A DNA stretch of 51,935 bases. Source: Monosiga brevicollis MX1 (taxonomy: Eukaryota). The DNA is taken from positions 725,617 to 777,551 of the forward strand of contig NW_001865055.1 in NCBI RefSeq assembly GCF_000002865.3. The letters are read 5' to 3'. The position numbers and the translations under genes are program-made. Each line of letters starts with the position of its first letter. Position 1 is the first letter of the stretch. Below are positions 3,170 to 51,360 of the stretch, piece by piece. The notes under the pieces were generated by a model that was not told the origin of the DNA, did not search any database, and saw only the letters and a list, made by a program, of their open reading frames with translations.

Positions 3170-4093
3170 GGTGCTGGTCGGTCCTCGGGGATCGTAGGGT
3201 GGCGTCTGCGCATGGGCGGGCACGCCCGCCGACAGCAGTGCCAGGCTTCCCAGTGTGGCGGTCACAGCACACCACCACCTCGCCAGACAGAATGAGAAGA
3301 CGTCAGCAGCGCAGATGTCAACCGACAACGGCAACGGAGCGTCCAGCGCACGGGGGCAGACAGACGGTCACCGGTGTCGCAGCGCAGCGAGATCTGTTTG
3401 AGAGGCGTGAAAGTAAATGTGAGAGAGAGTGTGTATAAGTCGGGAACTGTGGGAGAGAAGAGGAACAAGTCTGGAAGACGATCAGAGATGCGTTTGTTTT
3501 GCGAAAACCTTTGCCTGCGAATCCGTACTAAAATAAAGAGATAGAGATCGAATTTGATGAACTTGAAGAGAGAACGAGATTCAAGAACTTGCAATGAGAG
3601 ACAGAGGCAGAGAAACAACGTAAGAAAGTTTAAAAAAAAAACGGCGAAAACAAGAGAGAGAGAGAAATTAAAACTTTTTGGTCGTTACAACAAGACCTAT
3701 TTTCGGCGCATTGGACTATCAATAGATTGTCAGAACAAATTCGCATTTGCTCTCTAATGTTAAGATCTTGATCTCGAAAGTTAATCGAGGTGAGGCTCGA
3801 CGGCGACAGCTGGTGCAGCGCGAGGGCAGCGCCCAAAGGACGGCGGTGGCGCGTCAGTAGTGATGAGGATGGTGTCAGGAGAGCAGCAAAGCGACAGAAG
3901 CAAGTTTTTGGGCAGGACAGCGATTCGTGACAAAGTTTCACAGTTCTGGGAGACACCCGACAGTCAGATGCCTCTTGGTGGCAGAGGTGGATCTCGAGAT
4001 GCCCTTGCTCAAAGCCCGGATTGCTCATGCTTGCTTGTTCGTGTTTGTAGGGGTGAGCACCGGATGGCACGACATCACGACGCAATGCATGAC

Positions 4094-5080
4094 ATGGCGC
4101 GCTTGGCGGCGCTGATGCTGACACTGGCTGTTGTGGGCGCCTCAAGCACAACACCTCTGCTGGACCCGGATAGCTTCGTGTCTGAGCGCATCTTCAGTAG
4201 CCCCACCCTTGGCTGTGGGGCCGCAGACTACATGCTCTCCGTGGGTTGGGCCAACAAGCAGTGCTACCAGGATGGACCCAACAAGTATCGCAGACTCTCC
4301 TTTGACGCGAGTGCTTGCTCCGCAGCGCAGAACGTGACCGTGGCGATTGACGCTCCATCGTGTGATGCTGCCCAACCCGACTCGTCCTTGCCTATGAACA
4401 AGTGCGTCCCATCGGCGGCCACAAACACCTCGGTGCTCTTTCAATGCATGTGCAATCTACCCGATGCGTCCCAAAACTTTGGTCTTGTGCCATTTAAAGG
4501 GCGCTGTGGCGATGCCTCGAGCGTAATGATGGAAAACGCCCTGTTCCGTGAAAACGGCTTCTGCACACCCAACACCGACGGATCAGAGGGCTCCACGCTC
4601 TACTTCCTAACTGACGCCTGTCAGGCGAATCAGACGGTCGTGGCTGTGGTCTATAGTGATCGCCATTGCAAGGGAACCCCGCTGTCCGTCCCAGCGGCCA
4701 TCAGCGTTGACTCTTGCTTCGAGTCCAATGGATACATGGTAGGAGCATATTGTCCTTGCCGTGGTACCGACCTGGGCCCGGCTACGTTGGATCTACGCAC
4801 CTTTGCCAATAGCGAATGTAGTAGCCGTGAGCCGGGTCCCCACATCCAAGCCCACTTGAACCAATGCGTGGCCTTTGCCGGGCCCTCCGGGCTCCTCCTG
4901 TCCATGCGCATTAAAACCCCGGCAGGCGATGTCTGCACTCCGCACGCCACCTACCAAGTGGACACATTTATGGATGCCAACTGCACGACGCCGGCCTCCA
5001 GCAACCCGCTTATTACACACACTTGCTCCATAGTCCAGTGGGGCACGATGCTGTTCTCCGGCAACGTCACCTGCCTTTAG
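4094..5080 (+). CDS. Secreted cysteine-rich protein of three ~100-aa Cys modules; intronless, unknown function
   Basis: ORF 3860..5080. The likely start MARLAALMLTLAVVGASS is signal-peptide-like (alternative ATG at 4064). Three modules have similar Cys spacing and end CMC, CPC and TCL; Y/FxDxxC motifs (YSDRHC, FMDANC); several N-x-S/T sequons. Confidence 0.7.
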   Translation: MARLAALMLTLAVVGASSTTPLLDPDSFVSERIFSSPTLGCGAADYMLSVGWANKQCYQDGPNKYRRLSFDASACSAAQNVTVAIDAPSCDAAQPDSSLPMNKCVPSAATNTSVLFQCMCNLPDASQNFGLVPFKGRCGDASSVMMENALFRENGFCTPNTDGSEGSTLYFLTDACQANQTVVAVVYSDRHCKGTPLSVPAAISVDSCFESNGYMVGAYCPCRGTDLGPATLDLRTFANSECSSREPGPHIQAHLNQCVAFAGPSGLLLSMRIKTPAGDVCTPHATYQVDTFMDANCTTPASSNPLITHTCSIVQWGTMLFSGNVTCL

Positions 5081-5731: not shown

Positions 5732-7038
5732 TCAGATCAAGTTGAAGCGAGTTTTCCAGTACCACTGGCCATCGTTCCGGTACCAAGCAATCTTGTGGTC
5801 ATTAACACTGGCGCTGAGGACGTCGACATCGCCGTCCCCATCCAGATCTGCCGCATACACTGAGTAGGCAAAATCAGCGGCGGTGGAGATGATGATCTGG
5901 GCGGAAAAGGTGCCGTCGCCGTTGTTCCGGTACCACGCAATCTTGTCGTCGCCAGAAATGGCGCTGAGGACGTCTAGATCACCGTCACCGTCCAAATCTG
6001 CCGCATACACCGAGCGGGCATAATCAGCAGCGGTGGAGATGATGATCTGGGCGGAAAAGGTGCCATTGCCGTTGTTACGGTACCAAGCAATCGTGTTGTC
6101 ATTGATGCTGGCGCTGAGGACATCGAGATCACCGTCGCCGTCCAGATCTGCCGCATACACCGAGCGGGCGCTGTCAGCGGTGGCGGAGATGATGACCTGG
6201 GCGGAAAAGGTGCCGTCGCCGTTGTTCCGATACCAAGCAATCTTGTCGTCATTAACACTGGCGCTGAGGACGTCGACATCGCCGTCCCCATCCAGATCTG
6301 CCGCATACACCGAGCGGGCGCCGTCAGCGGTGGCGGAGATGATGATTTCGGCGGAAAAGGTGCCGTCGCCGTTGTTCCGGTACCACGCTATCTTGTCGTC
6401 GCAGAACTGGCGCTGAGGACGTCTAGATCACCGTCGCCGTCCAAATCTGCCGCATACACCGAGCGGGCATAATCAGCAGCGGTGGAGATGATGATCTGGG
6501 CGGAAAAGGTGCCATCGCCGTTGTTCCGATACCAAGCAATCGTGTTGTCATCAATGCTGGCGCTGAGGACGTCGACATCGCCGTCCCCATCCAGATCTGC
6601 CGCATACACCGAGCGGGCGCCGTCAGCGGTGGCGGAGATGATGATTTCGGTGGAAAAGGTGCCGTCGCCGTTGTTCCGGTACCACGCTATCTTGTCGTCA
6701 ACAGAACTGGCGCTGAGGACGTCAACATCGCCGTCCCCATCCAGATCTGCCGCATACACCGAGCGGGCGCCGTCAGCGGTGGCGGAGATGGTGAGTTGCG
6801 GGACGCTTGACCACATGCTTGCCGTTGCTTCAAAAAGGAAAGCAAAGGCCGCCTTCACGTCGACACCGTTGACTACCACTTTATCAGTCGAGTTGATGTA
6901 CAACGTGCCGGCCTCATCCACCGTGATCGATGGCTTCTGGGCCGCCGCCGCGACCAGTACCGCACACAGCACCCAAACTAGAACCAACACCTCCACGAGA
7001 CAACGTCCCCTTGCCCGCAGACGCATCGATGACGCCAT
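5732..7038 (-). pseudogene. FG-GAP repeat beta-propeller copy A (7 blades) with a 1-bp frameshift (pseudogene or sequence error)
   Basis: Split into ORFs 6388..7053 and 5732..6310. At about 6401 the repeat reads gtcgtc-gcagaact, one base short relative to sister repeats. Hydrophobic signal, leader KPSITVDEAGTLYINST, seven AADLDGDGD(L/V)DVL...IAWYRN repeats, C-terminus GQWYWKTRFNLI. Confidence 0.8.
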
Positions 7039-7467
7039 GACCCTGGTCTTCACTCCAATTCCTCTCGACCGTGTGCGTGTTCCTAACCAGCCTCCTTTGA
7101 AAGCAAATACATCCGGATGGACTACACGGACTCCCGATGTTGTGTACGAACGCAGTGATGGTATCTAGAATACGAATGCAGTGAATGTTTCCTGCGCTCT
7201 GCTGCTTCTTCTCTTTTTATCGGCATTGCTATCATCGAGCAGCTCAGGACAACACCACCACGCTTTTAAAATTCGAGTCAGATGAAAATGGCCTCATGCG
7301 TTTGGGGTCTGATGGAGAAGGAGGCGCTATCGGTGAGCGATAGCAACAATACCGAGAAGACACAGTGTCGGAAGCTCACAGCCAAAACAATATCAATTCT
7401 ACTGCCTACTCGTCAAACCCAGGTCGATCGTCCGGCTGGACAAGGCACAAAGATGGTCTCAATCAAA

Positions 7468-8823
7468 CTAATTGAAGTGAGTTTTCCAGTCCCACTGACC
7501 GTTGTTGCGGTACCACGCAATTTTGTTGTCGTCGCGGCTGGCGCTGAGGACATCGAGATTGCCGTCACCGTCCAGATCCGCCGCATACACCGAGAAGGGA
7601 TAATTGGCATTGGTGGAGATGACAAGCTGGGCGGAAAAGGTGCCGTCGCCGTTGTTCCGGTACCATGCAATTTTTTTGTCGTTCCAGCTGCCGCTGAGCA
7701 CATCGAGGTCACCGTCACCATCCAGATCTGCCGCATACACCGTGGTGGCAGCAAGCCCGGCAGTGGAGATGATGAGCTGGTCGGAAAAGGTGCCGTCGCC
7801 ATTATTTCGGTACCACGCAATTTTGTCGTCGTTGCGGCTGGCGCTAAGGACATCGAGATCACCGTCGCCATCCAGATCTGCCGCATACACTGAGATGGCA
7901 TAATCAGCAGCGGTGGAGATGATAATCTGGGCGGAGAAGGTACCGTCGCCGTTGTTCCGGTACCACGCAATCTTGTCGCCGTTGATGCTGGCACTGAGGA
8001 CGTCAAGATCACCGTCACCGTCCAGATCCGCCGCATACACCGAGCGGGCGCCATCGCCAGCGGCAGTGGAAATGACGATCTGCGCGGAAAAGGTGCCGTC
8101 GCCCTCGTTCCGATACCACGCAATCTTGTCGTCATTGACGCTGGCGCTGAGAACATCTATGTCACCGTCGCCGTCCAGATCTGCCGCATACACTGTGTGG
8201 GCATAATCGGCATCGGTGGTGAGGACAATCTGGGCAGCAAAGGTGCCGTCGCCGTTGTTCCGGTACCACGCGATCTTGTCATCACCAGCACTTGCACTGA
8301 GGACGTCAAGGTCACCGTCCCCGTCCAGATCTGCCGCATACACCGAGGTGGCGCCTCCGACGGCGGTGGAGATGACGATCTGGTCGGAAAACGTGCCGTC
8401 GCCGTTGTTCCGGTACCAAGCAATCATGCTGTCATGAACACTGGCGCTGAGGACATCGAGATCACCGTCGCCATCCAAATCTGCCGCATATGCCGAGAGC
8501 GGGCCGTCGGCGGCAGTAGAGATGACGAGCTGCTCTGGTGCGCTCCACCACAAGGCTGGCGTGGCGTCAAAAAGGAAGGCAAAGGCTGCCTCCACATTGA
8601 TACCATTGACCACCACTTTGTTCGTTGAATTGATGTACAACGTGCCTGCCTCATCCACCGCGATCGACGGCTTCTGAGCCGTCCCCGCGACCAGTACCGC
8701 ACACAGCACCCAAACCACAACAAGCATCTCCATGGTGCAACGTCTCCTGTCCCGCAGACGCATCAATATCAATGACGCCATGGTCCTCATCATCCCCACT
8801 TCAGCCAGATCGTGCTCGCCCAT
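7468..8823 (-). CDS. Secreted FG-GAP/calcium-blade beta-propeller protein, copy B (7 repeats, intronless)
   Basis: Intact 451-aa ORF. Hydrophobic signal MLVVVWVLCAVLVAGTAQ, seven ~50-aa repeats with the DLDGDG Ca-binding motif, ends GQWDWKTHFN. The true start may be a downstream Met. Confidence 0.9.
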   Translation of the reverse strand: MGEHDLAEVGMMRTMASLILMRLRDRRRCTMEMLVVVWVLCAVLVAGTAQKPSIAVDEAGTLYINSTNKVVVNGINVEAAFAFLFDATPALWWSAPEQLVISTAADGPLSAYAADLDGDGDLDVLSASVHDSMIAWYRNNGDGTFSDQIVISTAVGGATSVYAADLDGDGDLDVLSASAGDDKIAWYRNNGDGTFAAQIVLTTDADYAHTVYAADLDGDGDIDVLSASVNDDKIAWYRNEGDGTFSAQIVISTAAGDGARSVYAADLDGDGDLDVLSASINGDKIAWYRNNGDGTFSAQIIISTAADYAISVYAADLDGDGDLDVLSASRNDDKIAWYRNNGDGTFSDQLIISTAGLAATTVYAADLDGDGDLDVLSGSWNDKKIAWYRNNGDGTFSAQLVISTNANYPFSVYAADLDGDGNLDVLSASRDDNKIAWYRNNGQWDWKTHFN

Positions 8824-8849
8824 GCGCGTTTACTGCTTTTCTTGCTCGA

Positions 8850-8851
<2 letters not shown>

Positions 8852-8932
<81 letters not shown>
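8852..8932. repeat. (GT)n microsatellite upstream of FG-GAP copy B
   Basis: Uninterrupted GT dinucleotide run. Confidence 0.95.
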
Positions 8933-8934
<2 letters not shown>

Positions 8935-9714
8935 GTGAACAACGTCGAATGTCAGATAACTTGTTCGTGTCCGTTCGTGTCCGTTCGTCGGTTTATTTAC
9001 GCTTGGATGTTCATGGGAGCAAAGGCTTTTGGATCTGTGCGCAGGTCTTCAGGTGTGGAACGAATGAGGGGTGTATCTTGGATTACTTGAAGGACGTGAT
9101 GGGGCATGGCTTGCATGTGGTGTGCTAGCACGACCCTTCCAGCCATGATACACGGATGATGTCTGATCAGCCCATCTCTCAAGCTATAAAAGCCCATCTG
9201 ATCATGCCAACGACCCAGGCTGCGGCAAATGAAGAGCTCAAGATCAGGTCCGACCACGCCATCGCTTGTCGGGTAAACAACGAAACTGGTGAAGATAAGG
9301 CCACACACCAAGCCAGCTGCAATTCATCCTGACACGTGTATCGTCAAACCCCTTCTGTTCCCTGCATCCCCTTCAACATAGCTGGAACAGTCCTCGCAAA
9401 TCCTTGTCTACGATGGTCCCCTTGAGCAGTAGTTGGTGTCTTTGAGAAATCCAATTCCTGGACTTTGCTTTCTTCCAAATCCAATTGATGATGAGGATCG
9501 TGGTAAATGAAGGGAGTAGAAACACATTCGACCAGGCAGAGGAGCAATTTCGGAGTGAGACTCAAGCGCCACAAGTTGTAAGCCGATGTCTCCACTGCCT
9601 CCTCTTCCTGCTCTGCAAGGAGATTCAGAGCCAAGAGCATCTTGTGGAGTCAGCAATTGTCCGACGTGTATGAATGAGGCGTACAAGACGCAAAGATGGT
9701 TAAGAGTGCAGGGT

Positions 9715-9804
9715 TTAGGGCAAATTGAAGCGAGTTTTCCAGTCCCACTGGCCATCGTTGCGGTACCAAGCAATCTTGTTGTCATGGCGGCTGGCGCTGA
9801 GAAC
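9715..9804 (-). pseudogene. FG-GAP remnant C: 3' end only
   Basis: Encodes VLSASRHDNKIAWYRNDGQWDWKTRFNLP-stop, close to the end of copy E. Homology breaks abruptly at about 9805. Confidence 0.85.
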
Positions 9805-10180
9805 TTCCAGCTAAACACAACGTTTCTCATTTGCGCATGGAACATCACCGCGGGCCAAGCTCTAGTGCCGCCTCGAAAGACGCTTGCCTTGGTCGAACCC
9901 ACGCCACTTGATCAGACAAATCATCACTTCTTCTCTTTTTATCGGTATTGCTATCATCGAGCAGCTCAGGACAACACCACCACGCTTTGAAAATTCGAGT
10001 CAGATGAAAATGGCCTCATGCGTTTGGGGTCTGATGGAGAAGGAGGCGCTATCGGTGAGCGATAGCAACAATACCGAGAGGACTCAGTGTCGGAAGCTCA
10101 CAGCCAAAACAATATCAATTCTACTGCCTACTCGTCAAACCCAGGTCGATCGTCCGGCTGGACAAGGCACAAAGATGGTC

Positions 10181-10284
10181 TCAATCATACTAGAAGTGCA
10201 ACGTCTCCTGTCCTGCAGACGCATCAATATCAATGACGCCATGGTCCTCCTCATCCCCACTTCAGCCAGATCGTGCTAGCCCAT
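10181..10284 (-). pseudogene. FG-GAP remnant D: copy of B with nearly the whole CDS deleted
   Basis: 9927-10187 nearly duplicates the 3' flank of B (7205-7465) and is joined directly to sequence matching the first codons of B (8735-8845). Confidence 0.85.
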
Positions 10285-10323
10285 GCGCGTTTACTGCTTT
10301 TCTTGCCCGAAGAGAACAAACGC

Positions 10324-10328
<5 letters not shown>

Positions 10329-10384
<56 letters not shown>
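10329..10384. repeat. (GT)n microsatellite upstream of remnant D
   Basis: GT run at the position equivalent to the run upstream of B. Confidence 0.95.
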
Positions 10385-10387
<3 letters not shown>

Positions 10388-11156
10388 GGAGTATTGTTGT
10401 GTTTCGTGTGTGTGAAAAACGAATGTCAGATAACTTGTGCGAGTCTGAGCGTACATACGTTGATGAGAGCAAAAGCTTTTGATCCGTGCGTAGGCTTTGG
10501 AACGAATGACATGACCTCGCATGGCTGCAAGTGGCGTTCTAGCAGGACCGATCCAGCCGTGATGCAGGGATGATGTCGGATCAGACCATCTCTCAAGTTA
10601 TGAAAGCCCGCCCAATCGCGCCATCGACCAAAGCTGCGGAAAATGAAGAGGTCAAAATCAAGTCTGACGGCGCGATCGCTTGTCGGGTAAACAACAGAAC
10701 TGATAAAGATAAGGCCACACACCGAGCGAGCTGCACTTCGTCCTGACACGTTGATCATCAAAACACATCCGCTCCCTGCATCACCTTCAACAAACCTGGA
10801 ACAGTCCTCGCAAATCCTTGCCTACCATGGTCCCCTTGAGCAGTGGTTGGTGTCTTTGAGAAATTCAATTCCTGGTCTTTGCTTTCTTCCAAATCCAATT
10901 GATGACGAGGATCGTGGTAAATGAAGGGAGAAGAAACACATTCAACCAGGCCAGGCAGAGAATCAGGGGCAAGGGGTCGGACATAGCAGTTTCGGAGTGA
11001 GACTCAAGTGCCACAAGTTGTAAGCCGATGTCTCCACTGCCTCCTCTTCCTGCTCTGCAAGGAGATTCAGAGCCAAGAGCATCTTGTGGAGTCAGCAATT
11101 GTCCGACGTGTATGAATGAGGCGTACAAGACGCAAAGATGGTTAAGAGTGCAGGGT

Positions 11157-12458
11157 TTAGGGCAAATTAAAGCGAGTTTTCCAGTCCCACTGGCCATCGT
11201 TGCGGTACCACGCAATCTTATTGTCGCCGCCACTGGCGCTGAGGACGTCAAGATCACCGTCCCCGTCCAGATCTGCCGCATACACCGAGCGGGCGCCATC
11301 AGCGGTGGTGGAGACGACAATCTGGGCAGAGAAGCTACCGTCGCCGTTGTTCCGATACCACGCAATCTTGTCGTCGTTGAGGCTGGCGCTGAGGACGTCA
11401 AGATCACCGTCGCCGTCCAGATCTGCCGCATACACCGAGCGGGCACCGTCAGCAGCGGTGGAGATGATGATCTGGTCAGAAAAGGTGCCGTTGCCGTTGT
11501 TCCGATACCACGCAATCTTGTCATCATTAACACTGGCGCTGAGGACGTCGTTGTCACCGTCGCCGTCCAGATCTGCCGCATACACCGAGATGGCATAATC
11601 AGCAGCGGTGGAGATGATGATCTGGGCAGAGAAGGTGCCGTCGCCGTTGTTCCGATACCACGCAATCTTGTCATCATTATCACTGGCGCTGAGGACGTCA
11701 AGATCACCGTCGCCGTCCAGATCTGCCGCATACACCGAGAAGGCACCGTCAGCAGCGGTGGAGATGATGATCTGGGTGGAAAAGGTGCCATCGCCGTTGT
11801 TCCGATACCACGCAATCTTGTCGTCACCATAGCTGGCGCTGAGAACGTCGAGATCACCGTCGCCGTCCAGATCTGCCGCATACACCGAGCGGGCGCCATC
11901 ATCAGCGGTGGAGATGACGATCTGCCTGTAATAGAAGGTGCCGTCGCCGTTGTTCCGATACCAAGCAATCTTGTTCCAGCTGGCGCTGAGCACATCGACA
12001 TCACCGTCGCCGTCCAAATCAGCCGCATACATCGAGGTGACGCCGTCAGCAGCGGTGGAGATGACGATCTGGGCAGAAAAGGTGCCGTTGCCGTTGTTCC
12101 GGTACCAAGCAATCTTGTCATCGCTGCTAGCGCTGAGAACGTCGAGATCACCGTCGCCGTCCAGATCAGCCGCATACACCGAGTCGGGGCCACGAACGGC
12201 GGTGGAGATGATGAGTTGTGGCACGCTTGACGGCGTGCTTGTCGCCGCTTCAAGTAGGTAAGCAAAGGCCGCCATTACGTCGACACCATTGACCACCACC
12301 TTCTCAGTCGAGTTGATGAACAACGTGCCAACCTCATCCACCGTGATGGATGGCTTCTGGGCCGCCGCCGTGACCAGAACCACACACAACGCCCAGGCCA
12401 AAACAAGCACCTCCACGGTACATGGTCCCCTTGCCCGCAGACTCATCGATGGCGCCAT
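11157..12458 (-). CDS. Secreted FG-GAP/calcium-blade beta-propeller protein, copy E (7 repeats, intronless)
   Basis: Intact 433-aa ORF: signal, leader KPSITVDEVGTLFINSTEKVVVNGVDV, seven repeats, ends GQWDWKTRFNLP. Confidence 0.9.
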   Translation of the reverse strand: MAPSMSLRARGPCTVEVLVLAWALCVVLVTAAAQKPSITVDEVGTLFINSTEKVVVNGVDVMAAFAYLLEAATSTPSSVPQLIISTAVRGPDSVYAADLDGDGDLDVLSASSDDKIAWYRNNGNGTFSAQIVISTAADGVTSMYAADLDGDGDVDVLSASWNKIAWYRNNGDGTFYYRQIVISTADDGARSVYAADLDGDGDLDVLSASYGDDKIAWYRNNGDGTFSTQIIISTAADGAFSVYAADLDGDGDLDVLSASDNDDKIAWYRNNGDGTFSAQIIISTAADYAISVYAADLDGDGDNDVLSASVNDDKIAWYRNNGNGTFSDQIIISTAADGARSVYAADLDGDGDLDVLSASLNDDKIAWYRNNGDGSFSAQIVVSTTADGARSVYAADLDGDGDLDVLSASGGDNKIAWYRNDGQWDWKTRFNLP

Positions 12459-12554
12459 GACCCTCGTCCTGATTGCAATTCAACCTGACCGTGTGCGTGT
12501 TCCTGACCACCGCACTTGGAAAAATAGTAAGTAAGGATCAGTGGTTCTTTCTTT

Positions 12555-12555
<1 letters not shown>

Positions 12556-12633
<78 letters not shown>
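12556..12633. repeat. (GT)n microsatellite upstream of copy E
   Basis: GT run. Confidence 0.95.
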
Positions 12634-12635
<2 letters not shown>

Positions 12636-12716
12636 AACTTTTCGGACTCCTAATGTTTGCAGACATGTCCTTTCGGATGTGTGCGTTTTCGGACTTCGGA
12701 CTCGTGATGTTTGCAG

Positions 12717-12757
12717 ACGAATGCAGTGATGGTGTATCGTAGTCACGAATGCAGTGA
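12717..12757 (-). promoter_or_regulatory. Doubled TCACTGCATTCGT motif upstream of FG-GAP gene (candidate cis-element)
   Basis: Two copies of ACGAATGCAGTGA on + (12717, 12745). The same doubled motif occurs at 7146-7184, 15881-15919 and, inverted, at 24274-24312. Function is inferred only. Confidence 0.45.
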
Positions 12758-13513
12758 ACGTTGAGGCATTCACCACCTGCCACGGCATCATTCAACACTT
12801 CAAAGCTTGTCGAACCTTCAGTCTGTGCGCATGCACTCATTGTGGTCGCATTCCCAGCTGGGAAAAAAATGAAGGCACCGGCGATGGGTGCGCCTGGGAG
12901 AGAAATAAAGCCGGAGACTGAAAGACTTGGTCATGATATCAATCCAATGCCATAATGTGAGCAAAACCTTTGATCCATGCGTAGGCTTTCAGGTTCGGAA
13001 TCCATGCCTCCGTCTACAAGCCCGTCGGGTCAAGCCATATGGCCAAGCAGCGGAAAATGAAGAGAGTAAGAGCAAGTCTGACTGCGCATCGCTCGTCGGG
13101 TGAAGAAAGGAACAAATCAAAATGAAGCCGCACACCAAGCCAGCTGAGTCGTTTCTCGTCAAGACACTTATCTTGCCTGAAACAGCCTCCGCGAGGCATT
13201 GTCGCCCATGGTGCCCATTGGGCAGCAGTTTGTCTTTAAGAAATACAAATCTTGACTTCGTGATTTACGTTCCTTTCTTCCAAATCCAATTGAGGATGAT
13301 TAGCGTGGTAAATTAAATTAAGGGAATGGAAACACATTCAACCAGGCCAGGCAGAGGATCAGGGGCAAGGCAATTTTAGAGTGAAGATGACGTGCCGAAA
13401 GCCAAAGCCACTTCTCTTCACACAGATTCAGAGCCAAGAGCATCTTGTAGAGTCAACGTGTATGAATGAGGCGCACACGTACAAGACGCAAAGATGGCCT
13501 CAAGAGTGCAAGG

Positions 13514-15250
13514 TCAGTTCATATTGAAGCGAGTTTTCCAGTCCCACTGGCCATCGTTCCGGTACCACGCAATCTTGCCACCGGTCACGCTGGCGCTGAG
13601 GACGTCAAGATCACCGTCGCTGTCCAGGTCGGCCGCATACACTGAGCAGGCACCGTCAGCAGCGGTGGAGATGATGATTTGGGCGGAAAAGGCGCCGTCG
13701 CCGTTGTTCCGATACCAAGCAATCTTGTCGTCATTGACACTGGTGCTGAGGACGTCGAAATCACCGTCACCGTCCAAATCTGCCGCATACACCGAGTAGG
13801 CATAATCAGCGGCGGTGGAGATGACGATCTGGGTGGAAAAGGTGCCGTCGCCGTTGTTCCGGTACCACGCAAATTTGTTGTCGAAGCGGCTGGCGCTGAG
13901 GACGTCGAGATTACCGTCGCCGTCTAGATCGGCCGCATACACCGAGATCGGGCCGTCAGCAGCGGTGGAGATGATGATCTGGGTGGAAAAGTTACCGTCG
14001 CCCTCATTGCGGTACCACGCAATTTTGTCATCATTAGCACTGGCGCTGAGGACGTCGAGATCACCGTCGCCGTCTAGATCTGCCGCATACACCGAGAGGG
14101 CATAATCAGCAGCGGTGGAGATGATGATTTCGGCGTAACACGGTGCCGTCGCCGTTGTTCCGGTACCACGCAATCTTGTCGTCGTTGCGGCTGGCGCTGA
14201 TGCACATCGATATGACCGTCTCCGTCCAGATCTGCCGCATACACCGAGTAGGCGCCGTTGGTGGAGGTGGAGATGACGATCTGGGCGGAAAAGGTGCCGT
14301 CGCCGTTGTTCCGATACCACGCAATCTTGTCGTCATAGAAGCCGGCGCTGAGAACGTCGAGATTATTGTCGCCGTCCAGATCGGCCGCATACACCGAGTA
14401 GACGCCGTCGGCGGCGGCGGTGATGATAATCTCGGCGGAGAAGTTACCGTCGCCCTCATTGCGGTACCACGCAATCTTGTCATCATTAGCACTGGCGCTG
14501 AGGACGTCGTTGTCACCGTCGCCGTCTAGATCTGCCGCATACACCGAGAGGGCATAATCAGCAGCGGTGGAGATGATGATTTCGGCGTAACCGGTGCCGT
14601 CGCCGTTGTTCCGGTACCACGCAATCTTGTCGTCGTTGCGGCTGGCGCTAAGCACATCCAAATGACCGTCGCCGTCCAGATCTGCCGCATACACGGAGGC
14701 GGCGCCGTTGGCGGAGGTGGTGATGATGATTTGGGCAGACAAGGTACCGTCGCCGTTGTTCCGGTACCAAGCAATCTTGTTGTCATTGATGCTGGCGCTG
14801 AGGACATCGAGATCACTGTCGCCGTCCAAATCTGCCGCATACACCGAGGTGGCATAATCAGCGACGGTGGAGATGACGATCTCGGCGGAAAAGGTCTCGT
14901 CGCCGTTGTTTCGGTACCACGCAATCTTGTCGTCCAGGAAGCTCGCGCTGAGGACATCGAGATTTCCATCACCGTCCAGATCCGCCGCATACACGGAGGA
15001 GGCACCGTCAGCAGCGGTGGAGATGATGTTGCGGCACGCTAGGCCACATGCTTGTCGTCGCATCAAGTAGGAGAGCAATGACCGTCTTCACGTCGACGCC
15101 ACTTTCTCGGTCGAGTTGATGTACAACGTGCCGCCCTCATCCACCGTGATCGACGGGTCCTGAGAGGTTGCCGCGACCAGTATTGCGCATACAGTCCAAG
15201 CTAGAACAAGCACCTCCACGGTACATCGTCCCCTTTACCCGCAGCGCCAT
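13514..15250 (-). pseudogene. FG-GAP copy F: 10 repeats, frameshifted, degenerate 5' end
   Basis: Repeats are spread over several ORFs (13514..14320, 14074..15078). Single-base insertions at about 14140 and 14201. The signal/leader region 15030-15250 carries several small deletions relative to A and E. Confidence 0.85.
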
Positions 15251-15767
15251 GACCCTCGTCCTGATTGCAATTCAACCTGATCGTGTGCGTGCTCCTGACC
15301 ACCACTCTTTGAAAGAAATCGCAAGTCGAGAGTTTAGTTGTCGGACTCACAATTGGTCGTGTATACGATTATAGTGATAATGCTATTCTGCCCTTACACG
15401 TGTGAGGCTCACACGAATACGGTGAATTTGTGACGAATACGGGGAATGCACGACATTGTATTTGATTGTGGTTGACTTCGGTTGTGCGTTTAAAATGTGT
15501 TTGGGGCGCTGATAGTAAGGCGGGGATTGAACCAATACGCAGCCGCGCGCAAATGTCCGGAAAGCGAGCTGCCTCTCGTCCTGACCACGTTCATCGACAA
15601 AAAAAATCACGCCTCCAAAACGACATAAGCAGCCCTATCGACCACAGTGCCCATTGCGCAGCGGTTTGCTTGACTTCGTGATTGGCATTCCTGTCTTCCA
15701 CATCCGATTGATGCTGATCGTGGTTGTCCATTCAGGGAGTCGAACTGCGGCAGGCAGTGAAGATCAA

Positions 15768-15771
<4 letters not shown>

Positions 15772-15854
<83 letters not shown>

Positions 15855-15862
15855 TGTGTGTG
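15772..15862. repeat. (GT)n microsatellite followed by an orphan FG-GAP-type upstream motif
   Basis: GT run, then a degenerate doubled ACGAAxxCAGTGA motif at 15881-15919. Confidence 0.9.
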
Positions 15863-16620
15863 AGTACGGAACACATATTAACGAATTCAGTGATGATATA
15901 CAGTATACGAAGACAGTGAATGTTTCTAAACGTCCGAAGTCTTTTAATTTTGGTTCAATTGACTCTCTACAAATTTTCACAACTTTGACTCCCATCTCTA
16001 CTTTAAGCTTGAAGTTTGAAGGGAGGTATTTTTGACCCCGAACACAACCTCTGCGATCCTCACGCCACTTACCCTTATTCTCTACCCCGCTCCTTCTTCC
16101 CAATCGGTGTTTGAATTGCAAAACACACACACACACACACACACACACAGACGCGAGCGGGAAACGGCAGCGCCACGTTGGGGTGCATTTGTTCCTCCCC
16201 CTCCCCTGCCCCCCCCGCTGTTTAACGTCCGTCTACCTCGTTGCCGTTCGTTGGTAGACTCGTGCACGTACATACCTGGATACATATGCATTACGGCGCA
16301 GGGTAGATAGGGAAAGGGCTGGGTGGAGCTGGAACACGGGGATCGGTATGGTGGCTGGTCGGGCTCGTGGCTCTGCCAGGTGACTCGACACCTTTGCCTG
16401 CCACCGTGCAGCCGTCTGTGGCTGTGCCTGACTGACCTGATTGCTTGTCTGGGCTGGGCGTGTTGCCTTTATCTTTCAAGTCTGGGCAAGCGGTGTTCTT
16501 GTTGCTGCGCTTGTCGGCCGCTCGTGTGCGTCTTTTGGTGAGCTTTTGCCGTTCGCTTTGGAGGGTGGTGCTTGGTGCTGATTTGGCAGTACGGGCGGTC
16601 GCTTTGGTGACAAGCTGGTC

Positions 16621-19600
16621 ATGGCGTCGAGGCGCGATTCGCTGGCCGAGCTTGAGTTTGAGCGCTCAAGCTCGCAGCCGTTCATGGACGAGCCCGGTCG
16701 TCATGGCCCCACATCGGCGGGTGTGGCTGGGGCCGAAGGCATGGACGGCGATGATCCCCTGAAGCAGCTCGGGCGCCGCGATGGCATTCGCGTTGTGGTC
16801 CGCTCTCGTCCCTTGAATCAGACGGAACACCGTCCTGCACGTGACTATCAGGCCGTCGAGGTGCTCGAAGATCAACAGACCCTCGCCATCAAAACCACAG
16901 ACGCCGAAGCCCCACGCACCTTTACTTTCCACAGAGCCGTTGACGACCGCTGCTCCCAACAGCAATTTTTCGAGGTCTCTGGCATCAAGAACCTACTCGA
17001 CTCGGCCATGGAGGGCTATGCCTGCACCGTCTTTGCCTTTGGCCAGACTGGAAGCGGCAAAACTCATACCATCACCGGTCCTGATTCTCGTGAGTCTTGT
17101 TTTTCCTCAGATCCATCCTTCCTCAAAAACCCTTCCCTACTCCTTTTCAAAACGACTTGGTCCCCTCTTCAGAACGCCTCGTTCTTGGTCTAACCACAAA
17201 GCAATGCCTTTTTGCGATTAGCCTGAATCTTGCTCAAGCCCGCCCGATCCTCCTCATTCCTCACGCTTGACGCCCCTTGTGTGCCTTGCAGGCGACGATG
17301 ATGGCATCCTGCAGCGCTCCATTGCCTACATTTGGCAACAGGTGGCTAGCCGTTCCCACGTCACCTACAACTTTCAGGCTTCATACCTGGAAATTTACAA
17401 TGAACAAGTCATGGACCTTCTCAATCTTCGCTCGGAGCGAGGCGCTCTGCCCGTTCGCTGGAAAGCAGAACGTGGCTTCCACGTCGAAAACCTTTTCCGC
17501 GTAGAATGCGCCAGCGATCAGACCATGCTCAACGTTCTCGAGGAAGGTCTTCGTAATCGTCATGTTGCTGCCCACCAGATGAACGATCGATCCTCTCGCA
17601 GGTCCGCCCGTGCAACCTGCATGCCCAACCTCGTTCAAAGCGCCGGCAGCTCCTTGCTCGCCCGCACTCACGTCCTTCTTCTCCGTGCACAGCCATAGCA
17701 TCCTCTCCATCGATATTCACAGCATCGTCGAGGAATCAGATGGCACAGGCGATGGCCCCTCAGGTATGCATGTGCAGGGGCCCGCGCCGTCCTGTTTTAT
17801 TTTCCGCCCCCCGCTTGTTAATCTTGTTTCATGCCCGCTGAAGCCTTGACCTGGAGCAAACACGCTCAGTGACATTGTCTTTCTTTCTTTGACGCTGCTT
17901 TGTCTAGTGGTCCACCGACATGGCAGTATCAGCTTTGTCGACTTGGCTGGTAGCGAGCGCGTCGAGCGCACAAAGGCCGATGGCCAAACTCTTGTGGAAA
18001 GCAACAACATCAACAAATCCCTTTTGACCCTCGGCAACTGCATTAGTGCGCTGGCCGACCCCCGAAAGCGCAAGGGACACATCCCCTACCGCGATTCTGC
18101 CTTGACCATGCTGCTCAAGGACTCTCTGGGCGGTAGCGGCATGACCCTCATGATTGCCTGCATTTCCCCTGCGGCTACCTCTCTGCCGGTTTGTCTCGCT
18201 TTGCACAAGCTGATATTGCTTTTGTTCTGACCACACCTCTCACTCGTTGATCTACGAATTGGTGCAGGAAACTCAAAACACCCTGCGATATGCCTCACGG
18301 GCCAAGCGGATCCAAAACAAACCCATCGTGCACATGGATCCTCAGCAAATGATGATTCAGGCCCTGAAGCGTGAGGTGCGCATGCTTCGACAAGAATGTG
18401 CGTACTTACGCAATCAAATCGACTCGGGCAGCGAGGTCGTCTCTTCCAACTCTCTCCTCACTCAAGAGGCCCTCAAAGGTGAGCCGTTTTGTTTCTTCTA
18501 CCCCTGACCTGGCTCAACACAAAGCCAACAGGGAATGGCGATCCACAGACCACCTCTCATGCCCAGTCGGATGCATTGTTCGTCGGCGCAGCGCATACCT
18601 TGCTGGCTGGTGTTGGTCGTGACACAAGCACTGTCATCGGTGGGCGCACTGACGGTGGCGAACTGGATATGGAGGCCATCGCCAACATGGCCCGGGAGCT
18701 CACCCAAGCCAAAGTCCTGCTGCAACAGTACATGCAAGAAAACGAGGACATCCGCATGGAAAACGTGGCTCTCTACAGCCAGCATGCCGCACTACAGCTG
18801 CAGCAGGAGCAGCTCGAGCGTCACAATGCAGACCTTGTGGCTCAGCTGCGGGAGGTTCAGATCAATTATGAGCGTGCGCGCAACCCACAGTCCAAGGCAG
18901 CCTTGAGCCGGCGCCTGGGTGCTAGCCAAAACGGCGCGGTTAGTCTTTCAAGGCACCCTCTGCTCCTTCACTTGCTGCTCCCTGGCTCGGACACGTCGAC
19001 CCTTGTGCTTATTGTCTCACACCTCCTGACCTCGCCCTTGGCACAGCATCGCACCTCAAGAAATCGGGCCGGGCCCCGTGATGATGCCTACTTTAGCGCA
19101 CCCACCTCCATGTGAGCGTCGAGCTCTTTGTGCCTTGCCCACAGCACGTCTTTTATCGGTGCATGGTTGTTCTCACCATTTTATCGTGTTTTTCTCGCCT
19201 GCTTCTGGTTCCCTGCGTGTCGACATGCTCAGGATTAGCGGTACGGAAGCGCTTTCATCGGTGCCTGGCCCGACGGCCCATGTGACAGAGATGGCGCGCC
19301 TCGCCATTCGCCATCCCTCCACGGAGTGTGAGCGGCTGCGGGTATGTACCTTTGTGCTCGATTTGTTCGCTTGCCGTGCCATACCAAAGTTGCCCTACTC
19401 TTCCCGATGCCGAGCCAATCACACCGGCTCAACGCCCATGTTTATGATTTATTGATTTGCCCTGTATTGGCACCGACAGCCCGTTCATGAAAAGGAACCT
19501 CTGATCTTGGGCAAGGAGCCTGCAGCGCGCATGGCCTCGCCGTCTCTCAGTGAACCTCAAGGCAAAAGCCGCCGCAAGCGCAGCCTCAAGCCGGCTGCCA

Positions 19601-19963
19601 CCGCTCAGCGCCACGCCTCTCGGGTGTCAAAGGGCCGTGAACCCGCCCGCAAACCACCTGTGCAGGTGCCACCGCTACCGACCGCGACTCGGTCGTCAGG
19701 CCCTTCGTAAGTCTTTCATCGGTTTGATCATTTCTGACGCACTCCTGCTCACAATTTTTGGGGTCTGCACGCTTAGGCCAACCAAGTCGTTGCCCAGCGC
19801 CAAAGCTACCGCCCGCACCAGCATCAGTCGCGACTTGCTTGCTGGCATGACTGACTTGGACCGCGAGATTGCGGCAGCTGAAGCCGAGCTGTCATCCAAC
19901 TCAAAGAAGGCACCGATCAAAAAGAAGGGCTTGGCCCAGGCCTCGAAATCTCGTCGCCGGTAG
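16621..19963 (+). CDS. KIF12: Kinesin-like protein, KIF12/kinesin-16 type; multi-exon
   Basis: Motor motifs [10 protein letters not shown]-loop [27 protein letters not shown] (split by an intron), [50 protein letters not shown] is typical of KIF12. Followed by a coiled coil and low-complexity tail; the last exon ends KSRRR-TAG. 3' exon structure is less certain. Confidence 0.85.
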
Positions 19964-20370
19964 CTCGCACGTCTTCAAACCGTGCACTTACGCATGCAGT
20001 GGCACACAAGAGTGTCTTGTTGGGGCACGCTGTGTCTCATCCTCCGTTGTTTCTGACTGAAGCGCAAGTTTTCCTTGCCTGCTTTCTTGCTTTTGATTGA
20101 CCTGTGGCTTGTGATTGACCTGTGGTGTTTTGAGTCGAATGACTTGCTGTTTTGCTGATGTTTTTCCCCCTTACTGAAGTGCCCGAGCACGCTTTGAATG
20201 ACCCACGCCCCTGGCGGGCTCTTAATAACAAGAATTGACCCTTTGTCCGAATGCTCAAGAGCCCTACAAGTTTGTGCGTGAGGTATAAACGGTGCTTGGA
20301 TTCATGCGTGCTAATAAGCTGGCACAAAGAGCAGAGACTGCCAATCAAAACACAATGACACCTGGGCGCC

Positions 20371-23227
20371 TTAAGCAACAATCTGCTTCAGCTGGCTGAA
20401 GTCGGGCGAGCCCCAGCCGGAGGCAGGATCCTATGACACGGGTGCAGCATGCGTGAGACAAGCTGGGTGGGGCGAAGGAGCACGATGCCTGCGCGAGCTA
20501 GCAAGGTAGGTTGACATACCCAGCCAGTGCTGGCTTCAAAGCCAGGGCAAGCACCGTCAGGGTTGGAGCCTTGGATCACGTCATTGAAGCCGTTGTCAGA
20601 GCCACCCGCTTGATACAGCAGGGGGTTCAAGAAGCCTGGAGGAAAGTCATTTCGAAACAAAACAAAACACAAAAATTAGGAAAAAGTCAGGGCCAAACAC
20701 AGATTGTGATACGAGCCAGCGCAACTCGTTGACAACGCGATGGGCATACCCAGGGGGCTCTTGCCGGCCAGGATGCGAACGTCGTTAAGTTGGGCAACAA
20801 CACCTGCAAAGGTCGGGGTGGCGCACGAAGTACCATCCACACCCACAAAAGAGCCCATGTAGGCAATTTCAAAGTCTTGGCAGAACAAAAACCAGAAGCA
20901 GAGAGGTGAGCGCGCGCACACACAGCACGGTTAATTAATGAAGGAGGCACTGATGGCAGCCGTTTTGATCAACGTACTGGTGGCAAACGCGGACACATCA
21001 GGGTAGGCACGGCCTGAGGCGTTGAAGTAGCGAGAGGCCGGAGCCTTGCCGCTGTTCATGTACGCCTTTACAGCATCCGCCTGCAAGAGGGTGGGAATAG
21101 AAACCGGGGGTTAGAAAAGAAGTTGCAACATCAACCATCCAGTCACGTCGCATACACCAAAAAGAGAACGCTTTGGTATGTACCTGGTAAGTAGGCTGGG
21201 CGTAAAAGTTGCTGAAACCACCTCCGCCGTCGGACCAGACGCGCTCGGGAACACCCGAAGTGCCACCAACAGAGGTAATGTAAGGGCTTGAGGTGGGCCT
21301 AAGCAATGTGCGTGGTGGGCACATGTGTCAATCACTGCGTCGTGCAGCACACAAGCAAGCTAGTGGATATAGAAGTACATGCGGGAGGAAAGGCAAGCGT
21401 ACCAGTCGGGAGCGAATTTATCATTGGTACAGCTGACGCCAGAGTCGCCAGCAGCGACAAGGATGGTGCGGCCGGAGACGCCAAACTTCATAAAGTCGTC
21501 GTTGACGCGTGTCTTGTAGCTGTCGTCAATGCTTGACTCAACGTCACCGTAGCTGACCGAGTGTACCCAGGGACTCTTGGTGTCGTTGAGCTGGCCAGAC
21601 ATCCACGTCAAAAAGTCCTCCTACATCAATGATGCTGACTGTGAGATCATGAGCGTGGAGGCCTCGTTGCGGCTGACATGCAGTAACACACCTGGCCATG
21701 GTTGGCACGTTGGGCGGTGGACACGAACCAAGTCACAACACCACGGCCAGTGGCGCCAATGTACTACGCACGGGACAGCATGTGCATCATTAGCTTGGCT
21801 CGCGATTGGAAAGAAGGGCAATTGGGAAAACAAAAGCGCACCTCGACATCCAGATTGGCCTCCATGCCGGGTGCAAAGTCGACGTTGACACCGACGACCT
21901 TGGCGATGGGTTTGACGGGAAGGTTGAACTTCTTCTGGAAAGACTCGAGGTCCTCCTTGCGAAAGTATTGGCTAAAAGTCGACGAAAACAAGAATGATCA
22001 TCAAGACCGGCAACGGCTCAAGATGAGCACGACCCGACGGGCAAGCACCACAGACAGCACAAGAGGGCATTGAAGACTCAAAGGGATGGGGCCTTGAGGC
22101 GCCATGGTAAGGGAGCACGACTTACCCAAGGAAGGATGCAACAGCTTGGCTGTTGGTGCGGGCACTGCTGGTGTAGTTGCCCAGCTTGTAGGTCTTGTCA
22201 ATGAGCTGAGGAGTGGTCACCTCCTCGGGGGCCGTGAGAGGTTGGTAGGCCTTGGCCTCGAAACGCTGCAGGTCGGGGAGCAGACCATGGCCGAGGACAA
22301 AGTCCACGTGGGGACTCAAATGGTCGGGAACTGGGGCCTGAAACAGAATCGCAACAACGGGCACCAGGACAGGGTTAGCTGGAGGGTCGATCATCAGCTT
22401 GGAGCCGGCTTTTTAAAAGAGGCGTGGCAGACCTGGAGGCAACGGGCAACGGTGAGGTCCTGGGTGGCGTGGCGGTACAGTTGAGGCTGGCATTCCATCA
22501 GATGACCCATGTCCGCAGCTAGATCAGACGGCAATCGACGGTGAATCAGGAGGCAGGGCAGGAGCAGGACGCAGTCTGGTTGTAGGATGTGTCGATAACT
22601 AACCCAGGATATCGGCAAAAATGTAGCTGTGGTCCATTTGCTTGCGGACGTTGGTGGCACGGGCTGCCAGCATGCCCTCAATGTACCTGGAGGTTTGATG
22701 CAATGCCGATGTCCAAGTGCATCAGTGTAAGGGTCTCGGTGTAAGGATGGTGTTTGCATCTTAATGCTCAAGTAAGCAGGGTGGTTGTTGTTATTGTTGT
22801 TGTTGTTGTTTCTTATCGCCAAAGCAAGGGGGGCGTTGTGTGCAGCAAACGATACGCACTCGACACTTTCGGGAACGCCGTGAACGCGGGTGGCGAGAGA
22901 TTCCAGGGTGTGGTGTTGACCTAGGGCAAAGGTGGAGAAGAGAGCACGTGACATGAGAGCTTGGACCTGGTTGGGGTTCTCGAAAGCGATAGGCCAATCA
23001 AGGCACGAACCGTAGAAAGGGGACTTGGGATCGGACACGCGCATGAGTTCAGCTTCGAGCCATTCAATGCCAGTCTGGCGAACCGCAAAGATCATGGGCA
23101 CGAGTTCGGAGCCCGTGGCCGGGCCTTGATGCAGCCAAGCTGCATCCTCGCTCAGCGTCATGGTGACGGGTGCGCCAGTGGCGCAAAGCGCCACCGCGGC
23201 AAGGCTGATCCACAAAGATCCAGCCAT
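20371..23227 (-). CDS. TPP1: Tripeptidyl-peptidase I-like serine-carboxyl peptidase (sedolisin family S53); multi-exon
   Basis: Signal peptide MAGSLWISLAAVALCA; prodomain VSDPKSPFYG; EANLDVE; HSVSYG; AAGDSG; SSPYITSVGGT; GRAYPDVSA; catalytic GTSCATP; GFLNPLLY; WDPASGWGSPDF...VA-TAA. Confidence 0.92.
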
Positions 23228-37780: not shown

Positions 37781-38040
37781 CTCTGTCTCTGTCTCTGTTT
37801 TTTGTCTCTGTCTCTGTCTCTGTCTCTGTCTCTGTCTCTGTCTCTGTCTCTGTCTCTGTCTCTGTCTGTCTCTCTGTCTCTATCTCTGTCTCTCTCTCTG
37901 TCTCTGTCTCTGTCTCTCTGTCTCTCTGTGTCTCTCTGTGTCTCTTGTGTCTCTGTGTCTCTCTAAGTCTCTCTCTCTGTCTGTCTGTCTCTCTGTCTCT
38001 CTCTCTCTCTCTGTCTGTCTGTCTGTCTGTCTCTCTGTCT
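37781..38040. repeat. (TCTCTG)n / (TCTG)n low-complexity satellite
   Basis: Pyrimidine-rich hexamer and tetramer runs. Confidence 0.9.
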
Positions 38041-38251: not shown

Positions 38252-38422
<171 letters not shown>

Positions 38423-45060: not shown

Positions 45061-45110
45061 NNNNNNNNNNNNNNNNNNNNNNNNNNNNNNNNNNNNNNNN
45101 NNNNNNNNNN
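45061..45110. other. Assembly gap (50 N)
   Basis: Run of n. Confidence 1.
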
Positions 45111-51052: not shown

Positions 51053-51102
51053 NNNNNNNNNNNNNNNNNNNNNNNNNNNNNNNNNNNNNNNNNNNNNNNN
51101 NN
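51053..51102. other. Assembly gap (50 N)
   Basis: Run of n. The sequence to its right duplicates 50802-50945. Confidence 1.
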
Positions 51103-51223
51103 AGGGTAGGGGGAGTTTGGGTCTTCAGCGCGGAAGCCAAGTTGGCCACGCGCACGACTTGAAACGGTCGAGCACCAGGTGAACGTGACCAAGGAAGAGT
51201 TGAACCTAAGAGAGAGAGAAAAA

Positions 51224-51360
<137 letters not shown>

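Follow-up and report, generated by a model that had tools for sequence, protein, structure and literature searches.

Why should a protein repeat with a near-constant scaffold vary strongly at the same few positions? This question is raised by a cluster of genes in Monosiga brevicollis MX1, found in a 51,935-nt stretch of contig NW_001865055.1 that was analysed as a whole (hereafter the window, whose numbering is used for all coordinates). The cluster comprises seven members of one family, named A to G, which encode or once encoded β-propellers built of ~50-residue blades. An earlier interpretation, made from the DNA letters without database searches (the sequence-only reading), saw in them secreted seven-bladed propellers with two hypervariable loops per blade and proposed a recombination-diversified recognition repertoire. 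The explanation that we consider on balance probable is a tandem family shaped by gene birth and death. Its products would be secreted, Ca2+-binding propellers with seven pockets, whose pocket residues have been diversified, and they would bind in a lectin-like manner through several pockets that are not alike.

Blade scaffold, predicted fold and variable positions

A six-frame motif scan returned exactly 38 blades, the number of near-constant repeats counted by the sequence-only reading in copies A, B, E, F and G. Copies A, B, E and G contain seven blades each, as had been claimed for the whole array, but F contains ten, and A and F are broken. The intact copies are B, E and G, and C and D are remnants. 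When the blades (~50 residues or 150 nt) were aligned over 52 columns, two of which are rare insertions, 13 columns were found to be invariant (38/38). The cation-binding motif DxDxDGxxD is present in all 38 blades, with Asp at columns 16, 20 and 24 in 38/38 and at column 18 in 37/38, and Gly at column 21 in 36/38. Copies B and E match the family PF13517 (FG-GAP_3) with E-values of 8e-101 and 1.7e-103 (331 and 340 bits, for a cut-off of 26.9), in eight stretches each. The Pfam matches on the open reading frames (ORFs) that are explained by the repeats are to PF13517 and PF01839 only.

The AlphaFold2 (AF2) model of E, calculated from an alignment of 32 sequences, has a predicted local distance difference test (pLDDT) score of 86.9, above 90 over the propeller, and a predicted template-modelling (pTM) score of 0.81. 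It consists of seven blades of four strands, the last blade being closed by an N-terminal strand (residues 81–85). The nearest solved structures are the fungal lectins PVL, AAL2 and PAL (PDB 2bwr, 4tqj and 5mb4), with Foldseek E-values of 1e-15 to 1e-16 and template-modelling (TM) scores of 0.54–0.58. Sequence comparison with phmmer gave E-values of 2.9e-15 for PVL and 4.3e-12 for AAL2. The next structural matches are CRTAC1, BBSome propellers, aldos-2-ulose dehydratase, the Streptomyces UmbA4 complex and integrin alpha. The family membership, the seven-bladed model and the motif in every blade bear out the earlier proposal of a Ca2+-binding FG-GAP propeller, in which each blade would hold one Ca2+ site in its 1–2 loop, on one face.

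As read from the sequence, the intact copies begin with a basic n-region and a hydrophobic core of 15–17 residues, followed by A-x-A/S directly before QKPS. A domain of ~55 residues containing a conserved N-S-T sequon (the N-domain) follows QKPS, and the blades then start. No hydrophobic stretch or anchor is present at the C-terminus of the ORFs, which stop 9–11 residues beyond strand three of blade 7. The N-termini are probably cleavable signal peptides and the proteins soluble and secreted, in line with the sequence-only reading. The plan of the protein would be that of a signal peptide, the N-domain, and a propeller closed by the N-terminal strand. The N-terminal 92 residues were matched by none of the 157 candidates scored (0/157), and no usable look-alike was found in the Atlas (TM ≤ 0.33).

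Variation along the blade peaks at two places, termed site 1 (just before SVY) and site 2 (after SAS). The entropy is 3.34 bits at column 30, the first residue after SAS, where 13 different residues occur. Second comes column 10, directly in front of SVY (2.99 bits, 11 residues), followed by column 31 (2.37 bits, 10 residues), column 8 (1.77 bits, a dimorphism of Gly in 21 and Tyr in 11 blades) and column 23, which is the x in DGDGDxD (1.73 bits). Insertions or deletions (indels) occur at site 2 in blades E1, E2 and A3, and at site 1 as a one-codon insertion in blade 4 of B. All the site 1 triplets and site 2 pairs listed by the sequence-only reading were recovered in the alignment, at the places where it had seen hypervariable loops, but these loops amount in effect to one plus two codons, together with the Gly/Tyr dimorphism of column 8. 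The richness in aromatic and charged residues ascribed to both sites applies to column 10, with Arg, Tyr, Phe, His or Asp in 24/38 blades, but less to column 30, with Val, Ile, Leu, Ala or Met in 19/36.

In a propeller blade, which is a four-stranded meander, the 2–3 and 4–1 loops share one face, and the 1–2 and 3–4 loops are on the opposite one. Mapping of the variable residues on a predicted structure, proposed earlier as a check, was done with the strand order of the AF2 model: site 2 corresponds to the 2–3 loop, site 1 to the end of the 4–1 connecting segment, and the Ca2+ motif to the 1–2 loop. The structural study of AAL2 describes for this lectin and PVL how the connecting segment, jointly with the 2–3 loop, builds the sugar pocket, with Ca2+ in the 1–2 loops; the AAL2 pocket residues are Asn104, Gly110, Gly111, Trp112 and His117 of the segment, and Gly136-Glu137-Lys138 of the 2–3 loop (PMC4483166). 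HMMER alignments are ungapped from the first Asp of the Ca2+ loop to the 2–3 loop. Counting from this Asp, the Gly-Glu-Lys of AAL2 falls on columns 29–31 and the pocket His, six residues upstream, on column 10; the chain numbering of AAL2 is one off from that of the paper, the offset being deduced from residue types. By this alignment, columns 10, 30 and 31 correspond to His117, Glu137 and Lys138 of AAL2, which are residues of the N-acetylglucosamine (GlcNAc) pocket. That the three most variable codons are those of named pocket residues supports the view that the two sites act together. The single binding face proposed by the sequence-only reading should be amended accordingly: both loops map to one pocket of AAL2, but by homology there would be seven such pockets, one per blade. 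As the pocket codons are diversified, a propeller would display as many as seven pockets that are not identical, with differences between paralogues as well.

The proportions of synonymous (pS) and nonsynonymous (pN) differences between blades are 0.383 and 0.118, respectively. The overall ratio of nonsynonymous to synonymous rates (dN/dS, or omega) was 0.32 by parsimony counting on the maximum-likelihood (ML) tree and 0.35 with a home-made MG94-type likelihood, indicating that the scaffold is under purifying selection. The three pocket codons behave differently. Parsimony assigns 28 nonsynonymous and no synonymous changes to column 10, 31 and 9 to column 30, and 23.7 and 9.3 to column 31. Site likelihoods were calculated for the 38 blades or for the 21 blades of the intact genes, on trees that included or left out the variable codons. 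The nonsynonymous rate exceeded the mean synonymous rate 3.4–4.7-fold at column 10 (p ≤ 1e-7), 3.3–5.2-fold at column 30 (p ≤ 4e-6; the value of the 21-blade set ran to the bound and was discarded) and 1.8–2.5-fold at column 31. When the synonymous rate was made site-specific in a two-rate test, column 10 alone was significant (p 6e-6 to 1e-4), also with the intact genes alone.

Nine non-overlapping pairs of closest blades (88–97% nucleotide identity) were also compared. The three codons have a pN of 0.359 for a pooled pS of 0.150, a ratio of 2.4 (Fisher p 2.7e-4), the ratio being 0.28 for the remaining codons. Saturation of synonymous sites was considered as a cause of the excess and was ruled out by its persistence in these closest pairs and by column-specific codon choice. 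Asp is encoded by GAT in 36/38 blades at column 16 and by GAC in 36/38 at column 20 (heterogeneity p 3e-26), Ala by GCG in 38/38 at column 14 and by GCC in 30/31 at column 9, and the heterogeneity is found for Asp, Gly, Ala, Ser, Leu, Val and Ile with p-values of 1e-11 to 1e-79. The dN/dS comparison put forward by the sequence-only reading thus came out in its favour: three tests found the variable sites to evolve ~2.4–5 times faster than synonymous ones, firmly at column 10 and less so at site 2.

Gene copies, transcription and history of the array

Copies A to F are on the minus strand, between positions 5732 and 15331, in the order F, E, D, C, B, A from high to low coordinates (Table 1). 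The seventh member, G, is on the plus strand, beyond two unrelated multi-intron genes (16163–20239 and 20322–23236). The interval given by the sequence-only reading, 5732–15919, includes A, B, E and F but misses G. Arrays of 150-nt period were detected by TRF at 5774–6794, 7499–8533, 11233–12214, 13556–15028 and 24714–25733. The GC content of the array is 0.53–0.56, like that of its flanks.

Table 1. Members of the propeller gene array and microsatellites within it (window coordinates).
Feature	Position	Strand	Description
Copy A	5732–7038	-	Signal-like N-terminus, N-domain, 7 blades; apparent 1-nt deletion
Copy B	7468–8823	-	Intact ORF, 7 blades; probable start ATG 8781 (by homology with other copies)
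(TG)40 microsatellite	8852–8932		Just upstream of B
Remnant C	9104–9801	-	Last ~87 nt of the coding end of blade 7, and 3' flank
Remnant D	9927–10445	-	B-like 3' flank abutting B-like 5' end and flank
(TG)n/(GT)n microsatellite	10324–10384		In remnant D
Copy E	10878–12458	-	Intact, single exon; CDS 11157–12458, 433 aa, 7 blades; 3'UTR to 10878
(TG)n/(GT)n microsatellite	12556–12633		Upstream of E
Copy F	13514–15331	-	Pseudogene, 10 blades, from internal 450-nt duplication
(TG)n/(GT)n microsatellite	15772–15862		Upstream of F
Copy G	24444–25775	+	Intact, single exon, 443 aa, 7 blades

The deletion in copy A lies in site 2 of blade 3 (~6401–6405) and shifts the frame; no run mapped on the window gave indel rows, and no listed contig bridges position 6400. 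In copy F, blade 6 contains two 1-nt insertions, and the N-terminal part is interrupted by a stop and additional frameshifts; positions 14787–15273 of F are matched without difference by contigs of X1, X4 and X5 (three runs from two studies). The N-domain of G (24444–24716) contains a 7-residue internal duplication (VDVEVNGINVE) compared to A, B and E. Remnant C is 86.9% identical to 10519–11243, the 3' end and flank of E. In remnant D, the 3' flank (9927–10192) is 98.1% identical to 7205–7470 of B, and the 5' part (10196–10445) is 86.6% identical to 8735–8971 of B, so that D reads as a gene copy from which the propeller coding region has been deleted. With two broken copies and two remnants, the array evolves, as judged from its sequence, by gene birth and death. 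The four (TG)n/(GT)n microsatellites span 30–45 units, and the unequal exchanges that built the array were perhaps marked or promoted there.

The array genes are transcribed as single exons in an intron-containing eukaryotic contig. Contigs of runs X4 and X5 have joins with GT..AG and CT..AC borders in the two neighbouring genes, whereas run X1 gave one unspliced contig of 8733 nt (contig 7, 16163–24857) that extends from these genes into G; processed RNA is thus present in X4 and X5, and DNA in X1. X4 and X5 contigs are found on A, E and G, without a listed join inside these genes. On G, RNA contigs run from 24386/24395 to 24863 with 0 differences, beginning ~50 nt upstream of the ATG. A loose poly-T end at 10878 marks the poly(A) site of E, 279 nt past the stop codon. 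Expression, whose lack had been named as a refutation by the sequence-only reading, is thus seen for E, G and A in contigs of spliced runs and in the poly(A) end of E. An intron donor at the end of blade 7, between NDG and GTCAGTGG, with further exons beyond, was considered and rejected given the absence of a listed join in E and G, although the contigs there rank among the deepest, and the poly(A) end at 10878. Copy B (7791–9124) and parts of F have little X4 and X5 contig cover; contig depth cannot rank the genes by expression. In the mapped runs, allelic differences in the genes are almost nil, with three in E, all of which read as synonymous.

In one RNA contig of X5, position 6401 is linked back to 6107 through 5 other letters, and the sequence departs from A at 6164–6176. 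The blade that it encodes seems to have an A-like scaffold, a different site 1 and a different, in-frame site 2, which suggests a further paralogue or allele outside the window.

The blades are about equally distant from each other wherever they stand. The nucleotide identity of blade pairs is ~82% throughout (0.820 within the same gene and 0.820 between genes), and hardly depends on the blade index (0.827 for the same index and 0.824 for different ones, p 0.37). The pS of the N-domain between paralogues, 0.26–0.50, matches that of the blades, 0.38–0.40. Either one blade was amplified to seven shortly before the genes were duplicated, or conversion keeps the blades equidistant; both scenarios fit. 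Whole blades have been duplicated later, giving A1/2/4/5 and A3/6 (92–97% nucleotide identity), and F3/6 and F4/7 (94–95%); a period of 449 nt with 92% matches is detected by TRF in A. Recombination within blades was looked for with a test of the pairwise homoplasy index (PHI) type on the 150-nt unit. Observed values of 0.757–0.796, for 0.75 upon permutation (p 0.62–0.97), reveal no dependence of incompatibility on distance, and the "recombination-diversified" set is therefore unsupported at this scale; what is found is duplication of whole blades.

Other features of the window are noted. Adjoining copy A, the plus strand contains a 406-residue Cys-rich ORF with a signal-like start (3860–5080), without Pfam match at E ≤ 0.01. 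The gene at 20322–23236, on the minus strand, has at least 12 short introns with CT..AC borders (GT..AG on its own strand) and RNA-contig cover; its N-terminal ORF would seem to resemble a protease pro-domain preceded by a signal peptide. Assembly gaps of 50 N are located at 45061–45110 and 51053–51102, and dense simple repeats near them, namely (TCTCTG)n at 37780–38040, (TC)n at 38255–38350 and (AG)n at 51209–51356.

Relatives of the array and explanations for its variability

Among 8000 candidates scored, 7368 proteins match at E ≤ 1e-3, and the named matches are mostly bacterial VCBS or type IX secretion system (T9SS) proteins. In the best 120 matches listed, the identity over the blades is at most 68% and none covers the N-terminus. 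Pereira and Lupas define a VCBS supercluster, in whose core group a signal sequence or extracytoplasmic location is typical (PMC8023676). Highly repetitive, recently amplified VCBS propellers have been described in their surveys as protein-specific blade amplifications with many disrupted copies, found "only in bacteria" (PMC8023676, PMC9218822). The array resembles them by its HMM membership, its DxDxDG motif in loop AB, its putative signal sequence, odd blade numbers (ten in F), frameshifted copies, and an internal blade identity above the 60% criterion, with medians at the amino acid level of 0.85 in A, 0.78 in B, 0.84 in E, 0.76 in F and 0.78 in G. It differs by its tandem arrangement in an intron-containing eukaryote and by its minimal proteins, made of a putative signal peptide, N-domain and propeller. 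The available text of the surveys contains no analysis of variable blade positions or substitution rates.

Like PVL, AAL2 and PAL, the array proteins are single seven-bladed propellers of ~400 residues with Ca2+ sites in the 1–2 loops. The lectins share only ~22–24% identity with them, have 56-residue blades with a GW motif and conserved His and Asn/Asp, and to our knowledge lack a signal peptide. Their six pockets are near-identical and serve one sugar, and AAL2 binds two Ca2+, whereas the array blades vary precisely at the pocket positions and carry the Ca2+ motif in all seven blades. Integrin alpha continues after its propeller with thigh and calf domains and a single transmembrane (TM) helix and is partnered by a beta subunit; the array ORFs end shortly after blade 7. 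Eukaryotic PF13517 proteins, many with a signal peptide as is probable in the array, are known from the stramenopile Pirsonia diadema, for which a 2026 paper reports 445 integrin-like FG-GAP_3/EGF genes. The paper also presents a eukaryotic FG-GAP_3 clade, with ochrophytes, Guillardia, Diacronema and Ostreobium among its members, and leaves a bacterial origin open in the text available (PMC13524835). The Pirsonia proteins have EGF and other domains, introns and often a TM segment, unlike the intronless array genes, whose products end ~10 residues after blade 7. In Chrysophaeum taylorii, two homologues (P0098/P0125) continue after the blades into a multi-pass membrane region, which the array proteins do not have; the last blade breaks off abruptly in these two, and the gene models are perhaps imperfect.

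Lamprey variable lymphocyte receptors (VLRs) are repeat receptors of a like logic. The WD40, ANK and TPR repeats of fungal NOD-like receptors (NLRs) are described as having high internal conservation and few hypervariable positions (PMC4986451, PMC12222747), and a coral tachylectin-2 as being under positive selection (PMC2880987). Shared with these systems are the near-constant repeats, the excess of dN over dS at few residues of a binding surface, and the gain and loss of units. In the array, this focus of dN over dS is robust at column 10, and holds at columns 30 and 31 against the mean synonymous rate only. No NACHT, NB-ARC or other signalling domain was found by Pfam in the array ORFs, unlike in NLRs, and the array proteins are predicted to be extracellular rather than cytosolic. 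Set against these systems, the array has no recombination signal within units, no sign of somatic assembly, and a small family in the window. The likeness to variable leucine-rich repeat receptors drawn by the sequence-only reading was therefore not retained: three intact and two broken genes make a small germline family, with nothing like somatic assembly. A literature search, which left aside the supplements of the cited papers, found no report of diversifying or positive selection at FG-GAP_3 or VCBS blade positions.

A number of observations weigh against diversified, lectin-like pockets. The GW motif of PVL and AAL2 provides, from the connecting segment, a Trp that hydrogen-bonds the sugar O3 in the structures described (PMC8023676, PMC4483166). 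Trp is present in 0/38 blades at columns 1–10, the equivalent of the AAL2 pocket residue His117 is His in 2/38 blades at column 10 and is thus not conserved, and the connecting segment is shorter than in the lectins, blades being of 50 residues instead of ~56; sugar binding is therefore not implied. The pattern of variability is also found elsewhere. The consensus of 29 homologues has an "x" exactly at column 10, column 23 and columns 30–31, and the same three columns have the highest entropy (3.75–3.81 bits) in a set of 172 blades, taken from 68 of the best 120 matches, which vary also in the 3–4 loop. In P0098/P0125, where a signal peptide precedes seven WYRN blades that are nearly identical, the same two sites vary, and P0001, a probably bacterial protein, has the same pattern over 13 blades. 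A scaffold that stays constant around varying pocket positions is therefore a trait of the family rather than of the array, and may reflect loop positions that are generally tolerant rather than a special adaptation. The rate tests were made on 150-nt units with a poorly resolved tree and home-made code. The two-rate test was not significant at column 30 (p 0.42–0.99) or column 31 (p 0.56–0.89), where the own synonymous rates are high (alpha ~3 and 1.8–2.6, respectively). Because synonymous change is raised at these columns and indels occur at site 2, there may be a local mutational hot spot. Finally, in five of the nine closest pairs both blades come from the broken copies A and F, and a sixth pairs A5 with G3.

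Several of these points feed the most serious alternative, which is judged rather unlikely: that of an ordinary structural or adhesive extracellular propeller, of a cell covering or matrix for example, in which the variable codons are the least constrained loops, perhaps prone to mutation and indels, and have no functional meaning. Such a propeller would account for the same positions being variable in the homologues of C. taylorii and of probable bacterial origin, for the two-rate result and high synonymous rates at columns 30 and 31, for the clustering of indels at site 2 with a single one at site 1, and for two of five copies being broken. It does not readily account for column 10, where the nonsynonymous rate exceeds both the mean and its own synonymous rate even in the intact genes, nor for the closest pairs, in which neutral loops should give a ratio of ~1 rather than 2.4, nor for the coincidence of three positions with named pocket residues of AAL2. 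Bacterial contamination or an artefact of the assembly is scarcely credible as the source of the array. Its genes are intronless among neighbours with many introns, and its named homologues are mostly bacterial, but the DNA contig of X1 joins spliced eukaryotic genes to G, E has a poly(A) end, the GC content is that of the flanks, the signal-like N-terminus and N-domain have no homologue among the candidates searched, and eukaryotic FG-GAP_3 clades have been published (PMC13524835).

A larger claim would be a true diversified recognition repertoire, directed at non-self, prey, symbionts or pathogens, of which the window would hold a part of a larger family with fast turnover. It is possible, though we regard it as improbable. 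Each germline-encoded, secreted propeller would then offer seven different Ca2+-scaffolded pockets to the surface glycans of prey, symbionts or pathogens, and new specificities would arise by duplication and shuffling of whole blades, birth and death of genes, and diversifying selection at three residues. By analogy, though with the same small likelihood, the family would be the counterpart, made of lectins, of immune receptors that are built of repeats, following a logic like that of fungal NLR repeats or tachylectin-type lectins. The rate excess at the pocket codons, the fresh remnants of birth and death (with the flank of D still nearly identical to that of B), the whole-blade duplications in A and F, and the blade of the X5 RNA contig from outside the window are in keeping with such a repertoire, as is the suggestion by Pereira and Lupas, in the text available, that disrupted repetitive VCBS propellers may have time-limited roles, for example in immunity or self-recognition (PMC9218822). 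Against it stand the three intact genes only, within the window, the absence of a recombination signal within blades, and the near absence of allelic differences, the few in E all reading as synonymous.

Meaning for the propeller family

The birth-and-death family of secreted propellers with diversified pockets remains the reading that we find probable on balance. It would be a lineage-specific tandem family of single-exon genes, each encoding ~400 mature residues. A single unit would have given rise to all its blades around the period of gene duplication (dS ~0.5), whole-blade duplication being still ongoing. Columns 10, 30 and 31 have diversified faster than synonymous sites, and the scaffold is kept by purifying selection. 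The most likely function would be that of secreted, Ca2+-stabilised binders, with pockets that differ, of carbohydrates or similar surface ligands.

The protein family is already known, and the array is a neat rather than an unprecedented case. Symmetric VCBS propellers were bacterial only in a survey of 2022, as far as its available text goes (PMC9218822), and eukaryotic expansions of FG-GAP_3 have just been described (PMC13524835). The locus brings together, in a compact and transcribed eukaryotic case, blade amplification, gene duplication, decay, and a rate excess focused on positions whose counterparts in the solved relatives line the sugar pocket. If binding is uniform between blades and paralogues, the array would still be a clear case of the cycle of amplification and differentiation of propellers. 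If binding differs between them, the proteins would be natural lectins of ~45 kDa with several unlike pockets, and would offer a simple scaffold for the study and engineering of specificity.

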